This document shows, piece after piece, positions 1-7,233 of a stretch of DNA of 7,233 bases. The stretch is taken from IMG/VR virus record IMGVR_UViG_2531839030_000007. One strand, 5' to 3'. Every line of letters begins with the position of its first letter. Position 1 is the first letter of the stretch. The position numbers were made by a program, and so were the translations under genes. The DNA comes from a virus. Lineage: Duplodnaviria; Heunggongvirae; Uroviricota; Caudoviricetes. Under the pieces are notes generated by a model, which saw only the letters and a program-made list of their open reading frames with translations, ran no database searches and was not told the origin of the DNA.

Positions 1-73
1 AACGTGTATTTTTAGTCATCCTGTTTACCTCTTTCTCAGGGAGTTTAGTCTCCAGGATTCCCGGGGCGGTTCA
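1..73 (-). mobile_element. Left end of an IS3-family insertion sequence (IS629/IS1203-like): terminal inverted repeat plus first codons of orfA; the element continues beyond the window start
   Basis: Read on the minus strand from position 73 the sequence is TGAACCGCCCCGGGAATCCTGGAGACTAAAC..., a TG-initiated terminal repeat I recognise as IS629-group. It is followed by an AGAGG Shine-Dalgarno and ATG at 19..17 opening ATG ACT AAA AAT ACA CGT (MTKNTR...), which matches the orfA N-terminus as I recall it. Tfa homology on the plus strand begins abruptly at about 74. Confidence 0.65.
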
Positions 74-189
74 ATCTGCTGGCCGGAACTAATGAATTTA
101 TTGGTGAAGGTGACGCATACATTCCGCCTCATACAGGTCTGCCAGCAAACAGTACCGATATTGCACCGCCAGATATTCCGGCTGGCTTC

Positions 190-606
190 GTGGCTGTTTT
201 CAACAGTAATGAGGCATCGTGGCATCTCGTTGAAGATCATCGGGGTAAAACGGTTTATGACGTGGCTTCCGGCGACGCGTTATTTATTTCTGAACTCGGT
301 CCGTTACCGGAAAATGTTACCTGGTTGTCGCCGGATGGAGAGTGTCAGAAGTGGAACGGCACATCCTGGGCGAAAGATGCAGAAGCAGAAAAACTGTTTC
401 GGGTACGGGAGGCAGAAGAAACAAAAAACAGCCTGATGCAGGTAGCCAGTGAGCATATTGCGCCACTTCAGGATGCCGTAGATTTGGATATTGCGACGGA
501 GGAAGAGGCATCGTTACTGGCTGCATGGAAGACATATCGGGTATTGTTGAATCGTGTTGATACAACAGTAGCAGCGGATGTTGAGTGGCCAGTCGCCCCA
601 CAATAA
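190..606 (+). CDS. tfa: Tail fibre assembly protein (Tfa family), 5'-truncated remnant; probably a pseudogene
   Basis: The translation (…[81 protein letters not shown]…VLLNRVD…) is near-identical to enterobacterial lambdoid/P2-type Tfa proteins as I recall them. The frame is open from 49 but has no ATG/GTG/TTG before the GTG at 190. The canonical Tfa N-terminus (about 16 residues, MAFRMSEQPRTIKIY in E. coli homologues) is not encoded; IS sequence takes its place. Stop is TAA at 604..606. Confidence 0.85.
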
Positions 607-613
607 AAAGAAA

Positions 614-641
614 AAGCCATCGACAGAAATATCGATGGCTT
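614..641. terminator. Bidirectional rho-independent terminator between the convergent tfa and acetyltransferase genes
   Basis: Perfect 10-bp inverted repeat AAGCCATCGA (614..623) / TCGATGGCTT (632..641) with an 8-nt loop. On the minus strand it is followed by TTTTTCTTTTTA, on the plus strand by TTATGTACTCTATTT. It lies 8 nt after the tfa stop and 9 nt after the minus-strand gene stop (650..652). Confidence 0.6.
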
Positions 642-649
642 TATGTACT

Positions 650-1222
650 CTATTTATACAATACAACACCACTCTTTTTAGTTATATATGTGCAGTTTGA
701 TGGTATATCTTTATTTATAAAAGACATTGCACCTATTTTTACATTATCCCCAATTTTACGTGATAATCCAATGATGCAACAATTAGCTCCGATATCAACG
801 TTACTACCAATTTTTACTCTTGAACTAGGCATATCACCATCTATCTGTCCAATGGTAGTATTCTGTCGTAATACCAGATTTTCACCCGCATCAACAGCAA
901 AATGAACAACAATTCCAGCATGATGGGGAATTGTCAACCCTTTTCCAATATTTGCGCCCAATCCTATTTCACAACCAAACTTGTTAATTATTTTACTGTT
1001 TAACTTTTTGGCTGCTTTCTTATGTAATTTATTACCATTAATATACATTTCGTTAGCCAACCGCCACCAGAAAAGGAAATTCCGGTTACGCTGCTTTTTC
1101 TCTCTTAAAAGCCTCCAGATATCCATACGTTTCCGCCGAATTACTTCATGTTTCCAGAAGTTTTTTAAATTAGTAGAGTTTCCAAATAAAACAAAGTGAA
1201 TTGCCATTAAGTAAGATAGCAC
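650..1222 (-). CDS. Hexapeptide-repeat (left-handed beta-helix) acetyltransferase, WcaB/CysE-like; AT-rich cargo gene
   Basis: The ORF is open 650..1255. Its translation carries the serine/sugar O-acetyltransferase signature FGCEIGLGANIGKGLTIPHHAGIVVH…GENLVLRQNTTIG…VKIGSNVDIGANCCIIG…IGDNVKIGAMSFINKDIP, preceded by an FWWRLA helical segment. Start is uncertain: GTG at 1222..1220 has AAGGAG 6 nt upstream (preferred); alternatives are GTG at 1255 and ATG at 1207. Hand counts of 60-nt blocks give about 25-32% G+C here against about 53% in a tail-gene block. Confidence 0.8.
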   Translation of the reverse strand: MLSYLMAIHFVLFGNSTNLKNFWKHEVIRRKRMDIWRLLREKKQRNRNFLFWWRLANEMYINGNKLHKKAAKKLNSKIINKFGCEIGLGANIGKGLTIPHHAGIVVHFAVDAGENLVLRQNTTIGQIDGDMPSSRVKIGSNVDIGANCCIIGLSRKIGDNVKIGAMSFINKDIPSNCTYITKKSGVVLYK

Positions 1223-1273
1223 GATAATCTCCTTAATTATTATTTCAGACCACACATGTTATAAGGTTAAGAG

Positions 1274-1302
1274 ATTATAAAATCCTGTTATTTGTTATTC
1301 AA
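1274..1302 (-). promoter_or_regulatory. Sigma70-type promoter for the acetyltransferase gene
   Basis: On the minus strand: -35 TTGAAT (1302..1297), a 17-bp spacer, and a perfect -10 TATAAT (1279..1274). There is an A/T-rich tract upstream of the -35. The predicted transcription start near 1267 lies upstream of the AAGGAG Shine-Dalgarno at 1234..1229. Confidence 0.45.
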
Positions 1303-1378
1303 AAACAATTTTCTGAGAAGGACATACAACAGCAAGTCGCCAGTCACCTTCATCAGGAAATTGGCGACATACGTTAAA

Positions 1379-1873
1379 TCAGAGCAGCCCCTTAACTGAG
1401 CTGGCCGCGCTATTAAGGGATGATGTCACCTTATCTTTGAAGCCGGACAGCATATCGCTGAACGATGAGGATTGCAGGCGCTCCCGCAAATCCTCATCAC
1501 AGCGTTCAAGAGTCAGTGAAAATTCTATCTTTTTCGCCTTACCGTAGCGATCAAACTCGGAGCGGGTCGTATTCGTTCCGGTCAGGACATACATGCCGTA
1601 AATCTGCCCGACGCCATCAATCAAAGGCCAAGGACGTCCTGTATATGCCTGCGTGGTCAACAACGACAGCGACACTTCGCCACCAGTAATCTCAGGATAA
1701 AGAACACCAGAAAGAACGATGCGATCATCACCTGCACCGATATACTGCCAGCTTGCTGAACGGTTAACGCGTTCATTTTTCACATGTCGCCAGCTTTTGT
1801 TTTGCTGTAACTGCTGATGCGGCAACGTGCGCAGCTCAAAAACAAACATGCCGTAGATCATCATCATGGCCAT
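1379..1873 (-). CDS. U: P2 gpU-like tail protein
   Basis: The translation shares blocks with P2 gpU as recalled (LSGVLYPEITGG, WPLIDGVGQIYGMYV, KIEFSLTLERCDE). GAGGAG lies just upstream of the ATG cluster at 1873..1861, and the upstream tape-measure fragment ends at 1880..1882. Stop is TGA at 1379..1381. Confidence 0.88.
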   Translation of the reverse strand: MAMMMIYGMFVFELRTLPHQQLQQNKSWRHVKNERVNRSASWQYIGAGDDRIVLSGVLYPEITGGEVSLSLLTTQAYTGRPWPLIDGVGQIYGMYVLTGTNTTRSEFDRYGKAKKIEFSLTLERCDEDLRERLQSSSFSDMLSGFKDKVTSSLNSAASSVKGLL

Positions 1874-1879
1874 GACTCC

Positions 1880-2716
1880 TCAATCTTTATCGTAAAAACT
1901 GCCACGCCTGGCACGGGCGCGCCGTTCCATTTCTGCCCTGACCATTTCGCCGACCAGTTTCGCCAGTTCGCGGGGATTCTGCGTAACAACGTTATGCAGA
2001 TGAACATGAATTTCACCGCCAAATCCGGAGGCAACAGGCTCCCGGTTACGGGAAGTTGCAGGAACTGATGCCACTGGCGATCGTATGGCCTCCACCACCG
2101 GGCGGGAGCTGGCCGCAACAACAGGGACCAGCGCCGGAGGCAGCGGAGCCGGGACCACGGGTGTGATATTAATTGCGGGGGCAGGCTTACTGACCTGCGC
2201 AATCTTCCGCTCCTGCCACTCCCCACGAACAGCAAGTGCGCGGGGCAGGTTCTTAAAGACAATATCGCCGGGGCCAATGCGTTTTTTTGTCTCATCAACC
2301 AGCTTACCTGTGTTATCAGCAATTTTGCTGAGTCTGCGTAGCGTGCCGGTATTGCTGTCTGTGAGAGGTTTGTTGTCTTTGGGTTTATCATCTCCGGTGC
2401 CATTGCTATTTCCCGCAGACTTCGGCGGATTGATTTTCGCAATGTCTCCCTGAAACAGAGCAACCTTGTCCTGAAGAATGGCCGCACGTTGTGCGTCTTC
2501 GATTTTCTTGCGCGCCCTTTCCGCTTCATCCGGAAGCACACCGAGTTTTTCAAGTATCCACGCCAGCGTATCCAGCAACATTTTTGCAGGCGTCAGAACA
2601 AGCTGTAACGCACCACCAAGAACGTTACCGAATACCTCGCCAGCACTGGTACATTTATCCAGCGTTTCCTTGCTGGACTCCATCGGTGACAGCAGCGATT
2701 TAAACCAGTTAAACAC
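1880..2716 (-). CDS. T: Tail tape measure protein, C-terminal portion, out of frame with the N-terminal portion (frameshifted gene or pseudogene)
   Basis: A 278-codon ORF that overlaps the 3' end of the 708-codon tape-measure ORF in a different frame. It sits directly between the tape measure and gpU, as the tape-measure C-terminus does in P2. Its frame opens just after a TGA within the overlap. Confidence 0.75.
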   Translation of the reverse strand: MFNWFKSLLSPMESSKETLDKCTSAGEVFGNVLGGALQLVLTPAKMLLDTLAWILEKLGVLPDEAERARKKIEDAQRAAILQDKVALFQGDIAKINPPKSAGNSNGTGDDKPKDNKPLTDSNTGTLRRLSKIADNTGKLVDETKKRIGPGDIVFKNLPRALAVRGEWQERKIAQVSKPAPAINITPVVPAPLPPALVPVVAASSRPVVEAIRSPVASVPATSRNREPVASGFGGEIHVHLHNVVTQNPRELAKLVGEMVRAEMERRARARRGSFYDKD

Positions 2717-4719
2717 CTGGCTGAACCGCTTCCGATTACGTCAAAAACAGGGCCAAACCGTTCAAAGGTGTCGCGCAACGGGGTCAGCCTTTCCATAATC
2801 CCGCTGAACACCCCGGCAAAGAAAGCCCTGATAGGATCCCAGTATTTCCAGATAAGAACGGCAGCTCCGGCAAGCGCAGCCACGATAAGACCAACCGGAC
2901 TGAACAACGCCCCGATAACGCCTCCCAGTAAAGAAACGGAACCCGTCACCATTCCCCATAGCGCAGGTAACACCCTGACGACATTCATTGACCGGGTAAG
3001 AATGTCAAAACCAAGACGCAGGGTGGCCAGCTTCCCGTAAAGCACCCCAATAACCAGCGACAACGAGCCAATCGTTGCAGTCATTGCCAGCAACGCACCG
3101 CCTGCTATCAGTAGCTGGCGCGTCAGTACCGGATGGGCCTGCGCCAGCGAGGTGATTTTTTCAAGCACCCGCGTGAGCCACTGCGTGACAGAACGCAGCG
3201 GACCGTCAACCAGATCACTGATGCGAATACGAAGACCTTCCCATGCGCTGTCGAGATTTTTCAGGTCCCCATCAAGATTATCAGCCATTACTTTTGCGAC
3301 GCGATCGGCCTCTCCCCTTGCCCCCTGCAATTCTCTGGTCAGTTTTTGCAGCTCTCCTGAACCAGCCGCCGCAACAAGCGTCTGCAAACCAACGAACGCC
3401 TCTTCTCCGGCGATGTCCTTGAAGAAGGAGACCTGGTCCACCTGTCCGTATTTTTGTGTCGCCTTATAGAGATCAAGCAGCACATCCTCCATCGGGCGCA
3501 TTTTGCCTCTGGCGTCAGCAACTGACACCCCCAGCTCTTTCAGTGCATCAGCCGCAGCTTTTGGCGGTGATGCAAGGCGGGACAGACTTGCGCGCATGGC
3601 CGTGCCAGCATCGCTTCCGCGAAGACCATTATTGGCAAGCATCCCGGCCATGGCCGCCGCTTCTTCAAGACTGATACCAAGTTTTGCGGCAACCGGACCG
3701 GTATACTTCATGGTTTCGCCCAGCGCGCGTAAATCAGTATTGGTCCGGGTAAATGCTGCTGTCAGCGTATCGCCCACCCGGTCCATTTGATCGGCTGTCA
3801 GGTTGAACTGTGTGAGGATATTGGAGCCTATATCAGCCGTCTCGCCGAGTTCGACGCCACCTGCCAGCGCCATATTAAGAACACCGGGCAATGCGGCCTG
3901 AATGGCCTGCGGAGTAAAACCAGCCATTGCCAGAAAGCTCTGCCCACTGGCGGCATCACTCGCAGTAAACTGTGTTTCAGCAAGTTTTAACGCCTGCTCA
4001 CGCAGCGCCTTAAACTGCGGGCTGTTTTTGTCGATTCGCGTCAGTGCCTGAACGCGGGACATCTCTTTGCCGAACCCGATCGCAGGCTGCAAAAAACGCC
4101 CGGCAGCATAGCCGCCCGCCGCTGCCGCACCAATTGCCAGCGCACCACCTGTTTTCAGTTTTCCCGCGGTTTCCTGCGCGTGCGAATACCGCTCACGCGC
4201 CTGCGTTACACGCGCAAGCGCCTGCCGTTCGCGTTCAAGCTGGTTGTTGTATTGTTCGGTGCGTCTGATGGCCTGCTGAATGGTGTTATCGCTGCCTGTC
4301 AGGGAAATGCCGTGGCGTTTCAGCTCTCCGCCAAGTTCCCTCATTTTCTGAATTTCCCGTGTGCGCGATTCATTCAGGCGTTCAAGCCGGGTGCTTAACT
4401 GCTGCATCAGCTTTTGTTGTTTTTCGCTGAGCACTGTACCCGTGCGTTGTAACTGATTAAGGGCGTTAAGCTGGCGTCGTGCTTTCACGATGCCAGCATC
4501 CGCTTTACTGACAGCGTCGCGGGCGCGCTCAAATGATCGCGCCTGACGCTCGAGATTTTTGATCGCCCCCTGCGTTCGCTGGATGGAGTCACCAAACTGC
4601 CCCATCAGGCGGCGTGCGTTTTCGGCAGGTCGGGTCAGCCTGTCAACGGCGCTGAAAGCGACCCGGATATCAAGAGTCTTCATTGTCTGCATTCCCGCTG
4701 CGAAGTGCCGCCCGCTCAC
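2593..4719 (-). CDS. T: Tail tape measure protein, N-terminal portion (P2 gpT-like)
   Basis: A 708-codon ORF with coiled-coil-like Ala/Gln/Arg/Leu-rich segments and C-terminal hydrophobic Gly/Ala-rich stretches typical of tape measures, located between E/E' and gpU. The last roughly 45 residues (…GSGSARCLTGLNRCCHRWSP…) look out of frame. The true start is probably ATG at 4692 or 4683, overlapping the E' stop at 4670..4672, rather than GTG at 4719. Confidence 0.88.
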   Translation of the reverse strand: MSGRHFAAGMQTMKTLDIRVAFSAVDRLTRPAENARRLMGQFGDSIQRTQGAIKNLERQARSFERARDAVSKADAGIVKARRQLNALNQLQRTGTVLSEKQQKLMQQLSTRLERLNESRTREIQKMRELGGELKRHGISLTGSDNTIQQAIRRTEQYNNQLERERQALARVTQARERYSHAQETAGKLKTGGALAIGAAAAGGYAAGRFLQPAIGFGKEMSRVQALTRIDKNSPQFKALREQALKLAETQFTASDAASGQSFLAMAGFTPQAIQAALPGVLNMALAGGVELGETADIGSNILTQFNLTADQMDRVGDTLTAAFTRTNTDLRALGETMKYTGPVAAKLGISLEEAAAMAGMLANNGLRGSDAGTAMRASLSRLASPPKAAADALKELGVSVADARGKMRPMEDVLLDLYKATQKYGQVDQVSFFKDIAGEEAFVGLQTLVAAAGSGELQKLTRELQGARGEADRVAKVMADNLDGDLKNLDSAWEGLRIRISDLVDGPLRSVTQWLTRVLEKITSLAQAHPVLTRQLLIAGGALLAMTATIGSLSLVIGVLYGKLATLRLGFDILTRSMNVVRVLPALWGMVTGSVSLLGGVIGALFSPVGLIVAALAGAAVLIWKYWDPIRAFFAGVFSGIMERLTPLRDTFERFGPVFDVIGSGSARCLTGLNRCCHRWSPARKRWINVPVLARYSVTFLVVRYSLF

Positions 4720-5199
4720 GCCAGCTAACCACTTCGCCGGGCGTCATCATGAAGATTTCGGCGGGCGACCAGTTAAAAATAACGGCAATATCTGCCACAA
4801 AGTCTTCTATGTGCTCAAAGCACACAACCGTGATCAGGCTTCCGTCGCCTGTTCGTTCTTCCCGCCAGAGTCCGCACCGCTCAAAAAATTTACGGCAACC
4901 ACACATAACTGAATAAAGTCACGGGATGCCATTTTTTTGATCGTCACTTCATCCAGTCGCGGTGATGTCACGCGTGACAGCAGCGTAAACATGGATTCCG
5001 CTTTCAGATTCAGCACATCAGACAGCGACAAATCTCGCAGAGATCCAGCCTGCTCAATAGCCCCGGTGATCTCCACATACGTGATTTTTTCGCCGCCTCG
5101 CTCAATTGGTTGGGTAAGTTTTACACCACGCTCACTGGTTTCTTTCACAGTGTCAGTAACTACCGTGTTTTCGGTATCGATGTTTTTCGTCTCTTTCAT
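4670..5199 (-). CDS. Tail assembly chaperone E+E' fusion, made by programmed -1 ribosomal frameshift (P2 gpE+E'-like)
   Basis: The E frame (5199..4882) joins the -1 frame (4882..4670) at the slippery heptamer T_TTT_TTG. The -1 frame encodes …SPAEIFMMTPGEVVSWRER…, and the predicted fusion is about 176 aa. The arrangement of E, E' and T matches the P2 FETUD operon. Confidence 0.7.
4834..5199 (-). CDS. E: Tail assembly chaperone E (P2 gpE-like)
   Basis: A 121-codon ORF containing PIERGGEKITYVEI. AGGAG lies 8 nt upstream of the ATG at 5199..5197. It sits between the tube and tape-measure genes. Confidence 0.85.
   Translation of the reverse strand: MKETKNIDTENTVVTDTVKETSERGVKLTQPIERGGEKITYVEITGAIEQAGSLRDLSLSDVLNLKAESMFTLLSRVTSPRLDEVTIKKMASRDFIQLCVVAVNFLSGADSGGKNEQATEA
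4882..4888 (-). other. Programmed -1 frameshift slippery heptamer T_TTT_TTG for E/E'
   Basis: The minus strand reads AAT TTT TTG in the E frame (codons N104-F105-L106). The -1 frame is open from this point to 4670, and the E frame terminates 15 codons later at 4834..4836. Confidence 0.7.
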
Positions 5200-5253
5200 C
5201 AGGAAACTCCTTTCAGTCAGAGGCGACGCACTGCGCCGCCTGCATATTACTTA

Positions 5254-5766
5254 TCAGCCAAGCCCAAGCGCGGAACGGATGCGATCGGGCACAATGTCCT
5301 TGCCGTCCTTCCGGTAAATGAAGTTCAGCAGGTCAATCTCCCACAACGGGCGATCGTTAACACTCAGCTTGTAGTAGGTGTTTTTAATGGCGTAAGTGTG
5401 TGATGTGGCTTCGCCCTGTTTGGCTTCCCCCATATCAATTTCCGTCACACGTCCGCGCATTTCGACTTCATACAGGTCGCTTTCATCATCGGTGTAGTAT
5501 TCCCCCGCAAAACGCAGTAGCGTGCCGTCAATCGTGCCGCCATACTTCAGGAACAGCTCACGAACTGCGCCCCCCATGACAAAGCTCGCATCAAGCGCGG
5601 AGTCGTCCAGGCCGAGGTCAATACTTACCGCACCCATCATGCCACCACCCCGGTAGCTGTCGGTTTTGCGCGTCAGTTTAGGCAGGGTGACGGACGTCAC
5701 CTTACCCACTTCGTTTTCACCATCCACAAACAGCGTAAAAAAGCGAAGATGTTTTGGTACAGCCAT
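5254..5766 (-). CDS. FII: Tail tube protein (P2 gpFII-like)
   Basis: The translation contains VTLPKLTRK…YRGGGM…DLGLDD…LRFAGEY…EVEMRGR, matching P2 FII blocks as recalled. GGGAGG lies upstream of the ATG at 5766..5764, which overlaps the FI stop as TGATG. Confidence 0.93.
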   Translation of the reverse strand: MAVPKHLRFFTLFVDGENEVGKVTSVTLPKLTRKTDSYRGGGMMGAVSIDLGLDDSALDASFVMGGAVRELFLKYGGTIDGTLLRFAGEYYTDDESDLYEVEMRGRVTEIDMGEAKQGEATSHTYAIKNTYYKLSVNDRPLWEIDLLNFIYRKDGKDIVPDRIRSALGLG

Positions 5767-6950
5767 CAGGCACCTCCCAGCACCGCAAATGCGGGACCAA
5801 AGAATTCATCAGTAAACGACTGGTAAAGCTCCATGTCTTCCAGCGGAGGAACGGGCGTATATTTGTAGCGAATACGCACACGCCCCTGACGTAAATTCGT
5901 GGTGCTGTTATCCTCGATGTCATACCAGCACTCCGCGCCAATCAGTTTCCCGGCAGTAACCAGTGAATCCAGTTTTGCCCTGATGGCACTGATAACATCC
6001 TTCACGTTCGCAGGTGTCAGTGGACTGTCGATGGTTTCAAACTGCGCTTCCGCAATTGAATCAGCCAGCACCTGTGCGGTTCGGGTATACACCTCAAAGA
6101 TGTAGGCGTTCGTTTCCGGTGTGCGGTTGCCCCAGAAGCGGAACCCGTTGCGACGAATAATGGTCGTGATTTCTTTGTTGTTGAGGCTGTTGGCATCACT
6201 GTCTTCGGCCTGCAACGACCAGAACACATGCCTCGACATCCCAAGCACATTTTTAACCGGAACGTTGGACAGCGATTTGTGCCAGCCCTGCTCATGGTCA
6301 ATGTACGCACGAAGGCCGCACGCATAAGCAGGCGCGGGGAACGTTTCGTTTTTGCCACTTTTCAGGTTGTAGGCGATGAAGTCAGGCCATAAGAGCATCA
6401 CCTCACGTTCGTTGAATTTCTGGCGGTAGGTAATCGCCTCAGCCATCGTGTTACAACCATGACATGTGGCATACACAAACGCGCGCAGTTTACCCGCAAT
6501 CACGCACAGGGATTTTGTTACCGCCTCCGTGTCCAGCTCCGGCGCGGCCAGAATACGCGGACGGTATCCGATGCTTTCATCCTGCTCTGCAACAAGCAGC
6601 GCATACATCCCCGTATAGCTGCCGTCAGATTCAGAACCACCGATAACCAGTTGATCCTGCGTCTTACCGCCTTCTTCTTTGTGTTCAGCCACGCGAACGA
6701 CGATCACTTTTGTGCTCACCTGGTCTGCGATAGCCTTAAGCGCACGATAAAGCGTCCCCGTAGTCCCGCATTTTCCCAGCACGTCATTGACGCGGGTCAG
6801 CAGTGTGGGCTTGTTCAGCGGGAACAGCTCCGCGTCCGCATCATCTGCCGTTGCCACGATACCGATAACACTGGAATCAACATCATTAATCGCTGTTACC
6901 AGGTCGGTACTTTCCGTAACACGGGCACCATGAAAACGAGTTTCACTCAT
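5766..6950 (-). CDS. FI: Contractile tail sheath protein (P2 gpFI-like)
   Basis: The 394-aa translation carries P2 FI blocks (ADDADAELFPLNKP, KLRAFVYA, WPDF, EQGWHKSLSNV, RRNGFRFWGNRT, YKYTPVPPLE). AAGGGG lies 9 nt upstream of the ATG at 6950..6948. Confidence 0.95.
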   Translation of the reverse strand: MSETRFHGARVTESTDLVTAINDVDSSVIGIVATADDADAELFPLNKPTLLTRVNDVLGKCGTTGTLYRALKAIADQVSTKVIVVRVAEHKEEGGKTQDQLVIGGSESDGSYTGMYALLVAEQDESIGYRPRILAAPELDTEAVTKSLCVIAGKLRAFVYATCHGCNTMAEAITYRQKFNEREVMLLWPDFIAYNLKSGKNETFPAPAYACGLRAYIDHEQGWHKSLSNVPVKNVLGMSRHVFWSLQAEDSDANSLNNKEITTIIRRNGFRFWGNRTPETNAYIFEVYTRTAQVLADSIAEAQFETIDSPLTPANVKDVISAIRAKLDSLVTAGKLIGAECWYDIEDNSTTNLRQGRVRIRYKYTPVPPLEDMELYQSFTDEFFGPAFAVLGGA

Positions 6951-7161
6951 AGCTTCAGCCCCTTGTATCCGTTAAATGATTCGGCAACAATCATCACCCA
7001 CCACGCGCGTAATCTCACCCCTGCGCCGTTCTCCCGCCACGGCGACAACAAAAAGCAGTAACCCCCTCCGCACGCACATGCGACCATGCCGCACAGGGAG
7101 GGAACAGATGACCGACACCACCATGCAATTGCTCAGTCAGGGCACAGACCACGTGAAAGTT

Positions 7162-7233
7162 TGTTCGCCTTAACCATCCTGATATTTGCTCTGGAGACCA
7201 TTTCATCTCCAGCTTTTCCAGAACAAGCTTTCG
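7162..7233 (-). mobile_element. Internal fragment of an IS30-family transposase gene, truncated at about 7161; continues beyond the window end
   Basis: The minus-strand frame running through 7233..7162 encodes RKLVLEKLEMKWSPEQISGWLRRT, which matches the IS30 transposase segment (…LRKLVLEKLEMKWSPEQISGWLRRTKPRQK…) as I recall it, including the WSPEQISG hallmark. Below 7162 the frame continues as NFHVVCALTEQ…, which is unrelated, and no other frame continues the IS30 sequence. Confidence 0.6.

Follow-up and report, generated by a model that had tools for sequence, protein, structure and literature searches.

IS629, together with IS1203 and IS3411, belongs to the IS51 subgroup of the IS3 family (PMC10758439). 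One copy of this element, IS.14, is a PCR typing marker (primers Sak 11 FW/REV) present in most A6 strains of E. coli O157:H7 (Rump et al. 2011, BMC Microbiol 11:133). Table S2 of that study places IS.14 in Sp 13, at positions 2603612-2604668 of strain Sakai, describes it as ‘truncated’, gives its right flank as ATCTGCTGGC, and lists equivalents in EDL933, EC4115, and TW14359. IS629 is also a known partner of the IS-excision enhancer (IEE): as summarised in PMC9943667 from Kusumoto et al. 2011, the two together produce IS-adjacent deletions, some of only a few nucleotides and others longer than 40 kb. Neither PMC10758439 nor PMC7430833 contained anything specific to the site at which an IS adjoins the tail-fibre assembly gene tfa of Sp13.

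The DNA analysed here (the window; 7,233 nucleotides) comes from this prophage and begins inside IS.14. Window position 1 corresponds to position 2604733 of the Sakai chromosome (NC_002695.2), or position 9001 of our Sakai locus, L001. Window 1-7160 is identical base for base to Sakai and EDL933, and window 1-1300 recurs at 100% identity in hundreds of chromosomes of E. coli O157:H7, those of Sakai, EDL933, EC4115, and TW14359 among them. In Sakai, the locus lies within a region annotated as ‘prophage Sp13, P2-like phage’, adjoining the leuZ-cysT-glyW tRNA genes, and the chromosome record carries an ‘IS1203 Family: IS3 partial’ repeat_region with an ‘IS629 transposase OrfB’ at 2603749-2604805. 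The published right flank ATCTGCTGGC is window 74-83. IS.14 and the element at the start of the window are the same object, 1,057 bp long, with no difference at the IS end; the only departure of the window from Sakai is at its opposite end, from 7161 onward. The IS/tfa site is thus already annotated and published. We consider it very probable (roughly 90%) that the window starts with the IRL and orfA end of an immobile IS629 stump, IS.14, in a defective Sp13 prophage beside leuZ, when this reading is taken as a whole together with the history proposed for it below.

The first 73 bases of the window are confirmed by their sequence as the orfA-proximal (IRL) end of an IS629/IS1203 element of the IS3 family. 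They form the minus-strand terminus of a truncated copy (window 1-73, IS coordinates 73 to 1), of which the other 984 bp lie upstream of the window. All 73 positions match IS3-family/IS629 transposase loci of complete E. coli genomes (73/73, E = 1e-29), and the initial annotation was right to place an IS629-like element here. Our family assignment is based on RefSeq and GenBank annotation and on the literature. Among 5,426 complete genomes of E. coli, 3,575 contain a match to the 73-bp end, and in 818 records the best match is at least 99% identical. At an identity of at least 90%, it occurs in 66% of complete E. coli genomes, in a median of three places and a maximum of 50. The suggestion that IS629-type elements are characteristic of some pathotypes therefore needs softening: with IS629-like ends in two thirds of the complete genomes, they are not very pathotype-specific.

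Multicopy elements of this kind, which here reach up to 50 places per genome, are a classic cause of mis-assembly, and the joint between IS and tfa could in principle be a mis-join at a repeat or an artefact of the window. This reading has practically no probability left and is already refuted, because the junction recurs at 100% identity in hundreds of independently finished genomes, the four named above among them, and because PCR typing across the site has been reported with the IS.14 primers.

The element ends at window 73. We took four IS copies and used the three distinct insertion sites among them, and found that their flanks are unrelated past the shared ...CCCGGGGCGGTTCA (CAGT.., GACT.., and GAAT.., against ATCT.. 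in the window). Since copies at different sites diverge past that base, it marks the terminus. The element has TG...CA termini, and the left terminal inverted repeat (IRL; window 49-73, minus strand) ends in ...GGTTCA, the reverse complement of TGAACC...; its minus-strand reading starts with TGAACCGCCCCGGGAATCCTGGAGA, and 22 of its 25 nucleotides equal the right terminal repeat (IRR) of a full copy. The reverse complement of window 1-19 begins ATGACTAAAAATACACGT and translates as MTKNTR, the first residues of the 108-aa OrfA of the Sakai copy (MTKNTRFSPEV...), which carries the Pfam domain HTH_Tnp_1 (E = 1.3e-12). The proposed leftward orientation of the element and its orfA start codon at window 19..17 are therefore correct: the ATG at IS coordinate 55 (window 19) is followed by the TKNTR codons, and only these first six codons of orfA (window 1-19, minus strand) fall inside the window.

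Upstream of the window, the IS is a stump. The DNA there encodes OrfA and OrfB, and no tail-fibre gene. The expectation that the rest of the element would be found leftward thus holds for its coding part, as orfA and orfB do continue in that direction, but in Sakai the element extends for only 1,057 of 1,310 bp and has no IRR. The stump is identical to a full copy at 1,049 of 1,057 nucleotides, and past IS position 1057 the identity collapses. Compared with full IS629 copies, it has lost the final 253 bp, which hold the IRR and the C-terminus of OrfB with its rve_3/rve_2 segment. The gene order is that of orfA (HTH) followed by orfB (rve) across an A6 run; orfB is in the -1 frame relative to orfA and overlaps it at GGAAAAAATAA. 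RefSeq annotates both a pseudoknot and a programmed frameshift in full copies. In the stump, OrfB is truncated to ...GDSYDN|VFY, with three foreign codons after GDSYDN. It retains HTH_21 and rve, and its DDE catalytic core is incomplete. The catalytic glutamate of IS3-family transposases is carried by an NAxxES motif, and the segment lost from the stump begins with what we take to be this motif (NAMAES), presumably with the catalytic glutamate. The element is therefore a remnant of an IS629 family member rather than a functional one. It is unable to transpose by itself, given that the IRR is missing and that OrfB is without the rve_3/rve_2 part of the integrase core. Even so, the dead stump still offers 1 kb of homology for rearrangement with some 20 other IS629 copies.

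A target duplication of 3-4 bp had been anticipated, and none is present. The stump is flanked on the left by DNA from downstream of a parR-like gene and on the right by tfa. After a simple, complete insertion of IS629 into tfa, one would find just upstream the remainder of the element, a duplicated target of 3-4 bp, and the 5’ end of tfa together with the tail-fibre gene. Full IS629 copies elsewhere fit such an event, for example that of strain TR01, which is 1,310 bp long, is flanked by a GAC duplication of 3 bp, and ends in repeats that match at 22 of 25 nucleotides. The window copy is not of this form. Sakai, EDL933, and 254 other genomes hold just the 1,057 bp of IS, without an IRR and with parR-downstream DNA directly after it, and Sp13 contains neither the tfa 5’ part nor a tail-fibre gene according to the Sakai annotation. 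A simple insertion is thus already refuted, and we give it almost no weight.

The tfa gene has been beheaded at the IS terminus. Base 73 (A) is common to the IS end and to tfa codon 16 (AAT), and so the junction, placed by alignment with intact tfa genes and by blastn, is at 72/73 or 73/74; the blastn alignment of Sakai with an O26 prophage starts at L001 9073. The loss of tfa homology where the terminal repeat ends, which had been put at about 73/74, is accordingly right within one base. What follows is a 5’-truncated, lambda-type tfa on the plus strand (window 74-606), comprising codons 16-192 and a TAA stop at 604-606. In intact tfa genes (lambda, JL22, Ro157c2YLVW, and the O26:H11 prophage), 46 nucleotides precede the equivalent of window 74, made up of codons 1-15 and one base of codon 16. 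The missing codons encode M(A/T)FRMSEQ(P/S)RTIKIY, which precedes NLLAGTNEF in the intact homologues of 192-194 aa. The IS does account for the absent Tfa N-terminus, as had been proposed, since tfa lacks codons 1-15 at the junction; the loss amounts to just 15 of 192 codons.

Most of the Tfa sequence is retained. The Caudo_TAP domain (PF02413) of the remnant is complete, with residues 57-177 covering profile positions 1-131 of 131 (E = 5.5e-40), and its 533 bp are approximately 90-93% identical in nucleotide sequence to the tfa genes of lambda and P1-like phages. Pfam was needed for these assignments, as the tfa remnant, gpU, and the D fragment were all without a match in NCBIfam. Lambda Tfa and the tfa genes of JL22 and vB_EcoM-Ro157c2YLVW have a start codon, the first 15 codons, and a preceding tail-fibre gene, whereas the remnant has none of these, and is not a complete open reading frame with its own start directly 3’ of a tail-fibre gene, to whose translation its own could be coupled. 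No stop codon interrupts its frame from window 49 onward across the IS end, and the first ATG, GTG, or TTG is a GTG at 190. PGAP calls the remnant as a 176-aa CDS (WP_001310336.1) with a CTG start at window 76, just past the IS end, while the Sakai annotation begins tfaQ at the GTG at 190 (190-606). Neither marks the beheaded gene as a pseudogene. We infer that it is one, and suggest that it should be treated as such despite the CDS calls from 76 and 190. A pattern scan of the window found no sigma-70-like promoter site on the plus strand in the 73 bases before the remnant. The early genes of Sp13 are induced by mitomycin C, and read-through transcription of the remnant is therefore possible.

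The remnant converges with an acetyltransferase gene. Between the two lies a terminator-like hairpin with a T-run (window 613-642), detected as a pattern-scan match. The second gene (window 650-1222, minus strand) is a hexapeptide-repeat, serine O-acetyltransferase-like cargo gene according to RefSeq, with NCBIfam and Pfam hexapeptide hits that all fall below the family cut-offs, and it travels with this tfa allele. The P1-like phages JL22 and vB_EcoM-Ro157c2YLVW share this downstream gene with the window. The convergent pair (window 74-1222) behaves as a mobile module, being 91-93% identical to the pair in these two phages; in JL22, it sits between two alternative fibre-gene sets beside the cin invertase. 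P2-like prophages of strains including O26 and O103 also carry the pair intact.

The stump marks the edge of a large deletion. At the left junction, the stump stops at IS position 1057, and the adjoining DNA, with one nucleotide (T) of overlap, comes from immediately downstream of the parR-like gene of the prophage. By alignment, the left flank in Sakai is the parR-downstream sequence of the intact CEA212U prophage up to L001 8016/8017. The right flank is tfa from nucleotide 46 of the intact O26:H11 prophage, which occupies the same leuZ site. The block missing between them in Sp13 measures 15,993 bp (about 16 kb) in CEA212U coordinates. It holds cargo genes, the genes for the portal, terminase, capsid, lysis, baseplate, and tail fibre, and the initial 45-46 nucleotides of tfa. 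The missing 5’ part of tfa had been expected on the far side of the IS; parR-downstream DNA is found there instead, with some 16 kb of late genes deleted. IS.14, a conserved IS629 marker for O157:H7 typing, in this way also borders the deletion through which Sp13 lost its entire virion-assembly module.

Intact relatives show what Sp13 has lost. The O26:H11 11368 prophage has the order A, parM, parR, cargo, Q, P, O, N, M, L, X, holin, endolysin, LysB/C, R, S, V, W, J, I, H, and tfa (579 bp). After tfa, the opposite strand carries the acetyltransferase gene, U, T, E’, E, FII, and FI, beyond which lie D, cargo, ogr, hok, and tRNA-Leu. Sp13 is colinear with this prophage from tfa nucleotide 46 (L001 9073-16375 against 20400-27706 of the O26:H11 locus, L012) and again near the tRNA. 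Deleted blocks aside, it is syntenic with and 94-98% identical to two P2-like prophages, that of CEA212U and that of O26:H11 11368 at the same leuZ site. Sp13 has no ogr, the homologue of the P2 late-gene activator; the segment that holds this gene in O26 is one that Sp13 is without. A P2-like prophage of strain DEC5A (O55:H7) was considered as the undeleted ancestor and rejected, as it lies next to pdxB rather than leuZ and has a different, invertase-linked fibre module.

The FI-FII-E-T-U genes of the tail operon (window 1379-6950, minus strand) are antiparallel to tfa (74-606, plus strand) and to D (from 7108, plus strand), an arrangement that differs from the P2 gene order. We rejected an in-situ inversion of the operon, as the CEA212U prophage (for the tfa-U-T end) and the O26:H11 11368 prophage (for the whole FI-to-D segment) show the same arrangement. 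Judging from these relatives, the antiparallel arrangement is native to this phage group.

Further damage is visible elsewhere in the window. The tape-measure gene T (window 1880-4719, minus strand) is split into open reading frames at 2593-4719 and 1880-2716. Compared with the intact homologue in O26, one nucleotide is deleted near window 2724, which causes the split, and there is also an in-frame 3-nt indel near 3980. RefSeq reports a frameshift in T for EDL933, 4276, and 93_161312, and T is listed as a pseudogene for Sakai. At the far end, gene D (start at 7108, plus strand) is cut after approximately codon 18 and fused to the interior of an IS30, with the junction at 7160/7161 and a 1-nt overlap. 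This joint corresponds to a 904-bp deletion relative to Sakai (L001 16161-17064). A minus-strand open reading frame at 7015-7206 begins MKWSPEQISGWLRRT, which we take to be an IS30 transposase motif. The D/IS30 junction was found in one of the 5,426 complete genomes, that of strain 93_161312 from Japan (AP026101.1; 99.2% identity, one indel).

Two junction forms exist at the IS/tfa site of O157:H7. The left junction of the Sakai type is present in 256 complete genomes and the right junction in 265, probably including eight genomes with a variant IS. These eight, all O157:H7, are strains 4276, 9234, 2159, 2149, 1130, Gim1-1, NE92, and NCCP 13918. The sequence of the variant IS was examined in strain 4276, and the other seven gave identical coverage and identity (100% and 96.3%). 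The 265 right junctions exceed the 256 left junctions and eight variant genomes by one genome, which may hold a further rearrangement at the site. A match in an O39:NM genome, with 100% coverage of the full IS plus tfa, proved spurious, as it combined a separate tfa with a separate IS.

The variant IS is a full-length element of another subtype. In strain 4276 (CP017442.1; positions 9001-10310 of its locus, L013), a complete 1,310-bp IS, which RefSeq assigns to the ‘IS1203 family’, lies between parR and tfa. It differs from the common O157 copy at 60 of 1,310 positions spread over the whole element (95.4% identical), and from the Sakai stump at 49 sites across the shared 1,057 bp. It has no target duplication, with ACA on one side and GCT on the other. 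Its left flank keeps eight more authentic phage bases than Sakai (...AATACA-TACCAACA|TGAACC), and its right junction, GGTTCA|GCTGGCC, is missing four nucleotides (ATCT) that Sakai retains. Measured against the Sakai-type junctions, the IRR of the variant thus lies 8 bp beyond the left one and its IRL 4 bp beyond the right one. Each form keeps authentic flank bases that the other lacks, and so neither can be derived from the other by deletion. The backgrounds of the two forms are nearly the same, with three SNPs (two in the right part and one in the left) in approximately 10.8 kb of Sp13, and the tape-measure frameshift is common to both. Strain 4276 also carries a second IS629 copy (L013 17259-18568), which replaces the D fragment and the IS30. 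No genome among the 5,426 had both IS copies at the site, or a full-length IS629 at the Sakai-type right junction. This pair of mutually non-derivable junction variants is the sole mildly new element of our analysis. The locus does have a history of IS activity, as had been proposed, and the pair of variants offers a small, testable view of how IS events succeeded one another in early O157:H7 evolution.

The two forms constrain how the deletion may have arisen. IS629 would have inserted into tfa between codons 15 and 16, pointing away from the 3’ part of the gene, and DNA on its IRR side would then have been lost through an IS-associated deletion. This could have happened in one step, by a single deletion of about 16.3 kb from IS position 1057/1058 to downstream of parR, with no second IS involved. 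Such a path needs the fewest events for the Sakai-type structure taken alone, and the 1-nt overlap at both junctions is as expected of illegitimate end joining, although single-nucleotide overlaps are too short to indicate a repair pathway. It leaves unexplained, however, why eight close O157:H7 genomes have a variant IRR and IRL only 8 bp and 4 bp away. We estimate that independent events would fall so close within about 16 kb with a chance of approximately 1 in 1,000 per side, and we therefore regard one-step decay as unlikely.

A second path would begin with homologous recombination. Two IS copies in direct repeat, one downstream of parR and one in tfa, would have recombined with the loss of 16 kb, and a later 261-bp deletion (8 bp of flank and 253 bp of IS) would have produced the stump in the Sakai-type lineage. 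The IS of strain 4276, with its full length, its lack of a target duplication, and its eight extra phage bases, has the look of the intermediate that preceded truncation. Yet it differs from the stump at sites throughout the 1,057 bp, and so is not a hybrid of the two subtypes, and it lacks the ATCT kept in Sakai; neither form can therefore be the direct ancestor of the other. On balance, recombination between direct repeats seems doubtful.

We hypothesize instead that the common ancestor carried two IS copies. An IS1203-type element would probably have been located downstream of parR and an IS629-type element in tfa, and, in the order of events that we infer, each lineage would have kept one copy after imprecise excision or adjacent deletion, with neighbouring DNA lost. 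A two-IS ancestor is the most economical, since the forms are mutually non-derivable and yet their junction pairs are only 8 and 4 bp apart. The stump and the variant IS could then be alternative resolutions of an ancestral Sp13 in which two IS629 subtypes lay close together or in tandem, with one lost per lineage, either through an imprecise excision of the IEE type or through an adjacent deletion targeted to an IR. We put this forward tentatively, as a possibility with somewhat less than even odds. If true, the site would be a natural record of paired IS3-family elements dismantling a prophage.

Deletions of this kind have a described counterpart in the same organism. In the part of PMC9943667 that summarises IEE-dependent excision, deletions next to IS629 are reported from O157:H7, which makes imprecise-excision events plausible for Sp13. 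The resemblance extends to the host, the element, a kilobase-range deletion at or near the IS, and minimal homology at the junctions. As reported in that summary, IEE events usually remove the IS itself, whereas Sp13 keeps part of an IS. Under the two-IS history, the retained part may be explained by the loss of a neighbouring second IS, in which IEE may have played a role.
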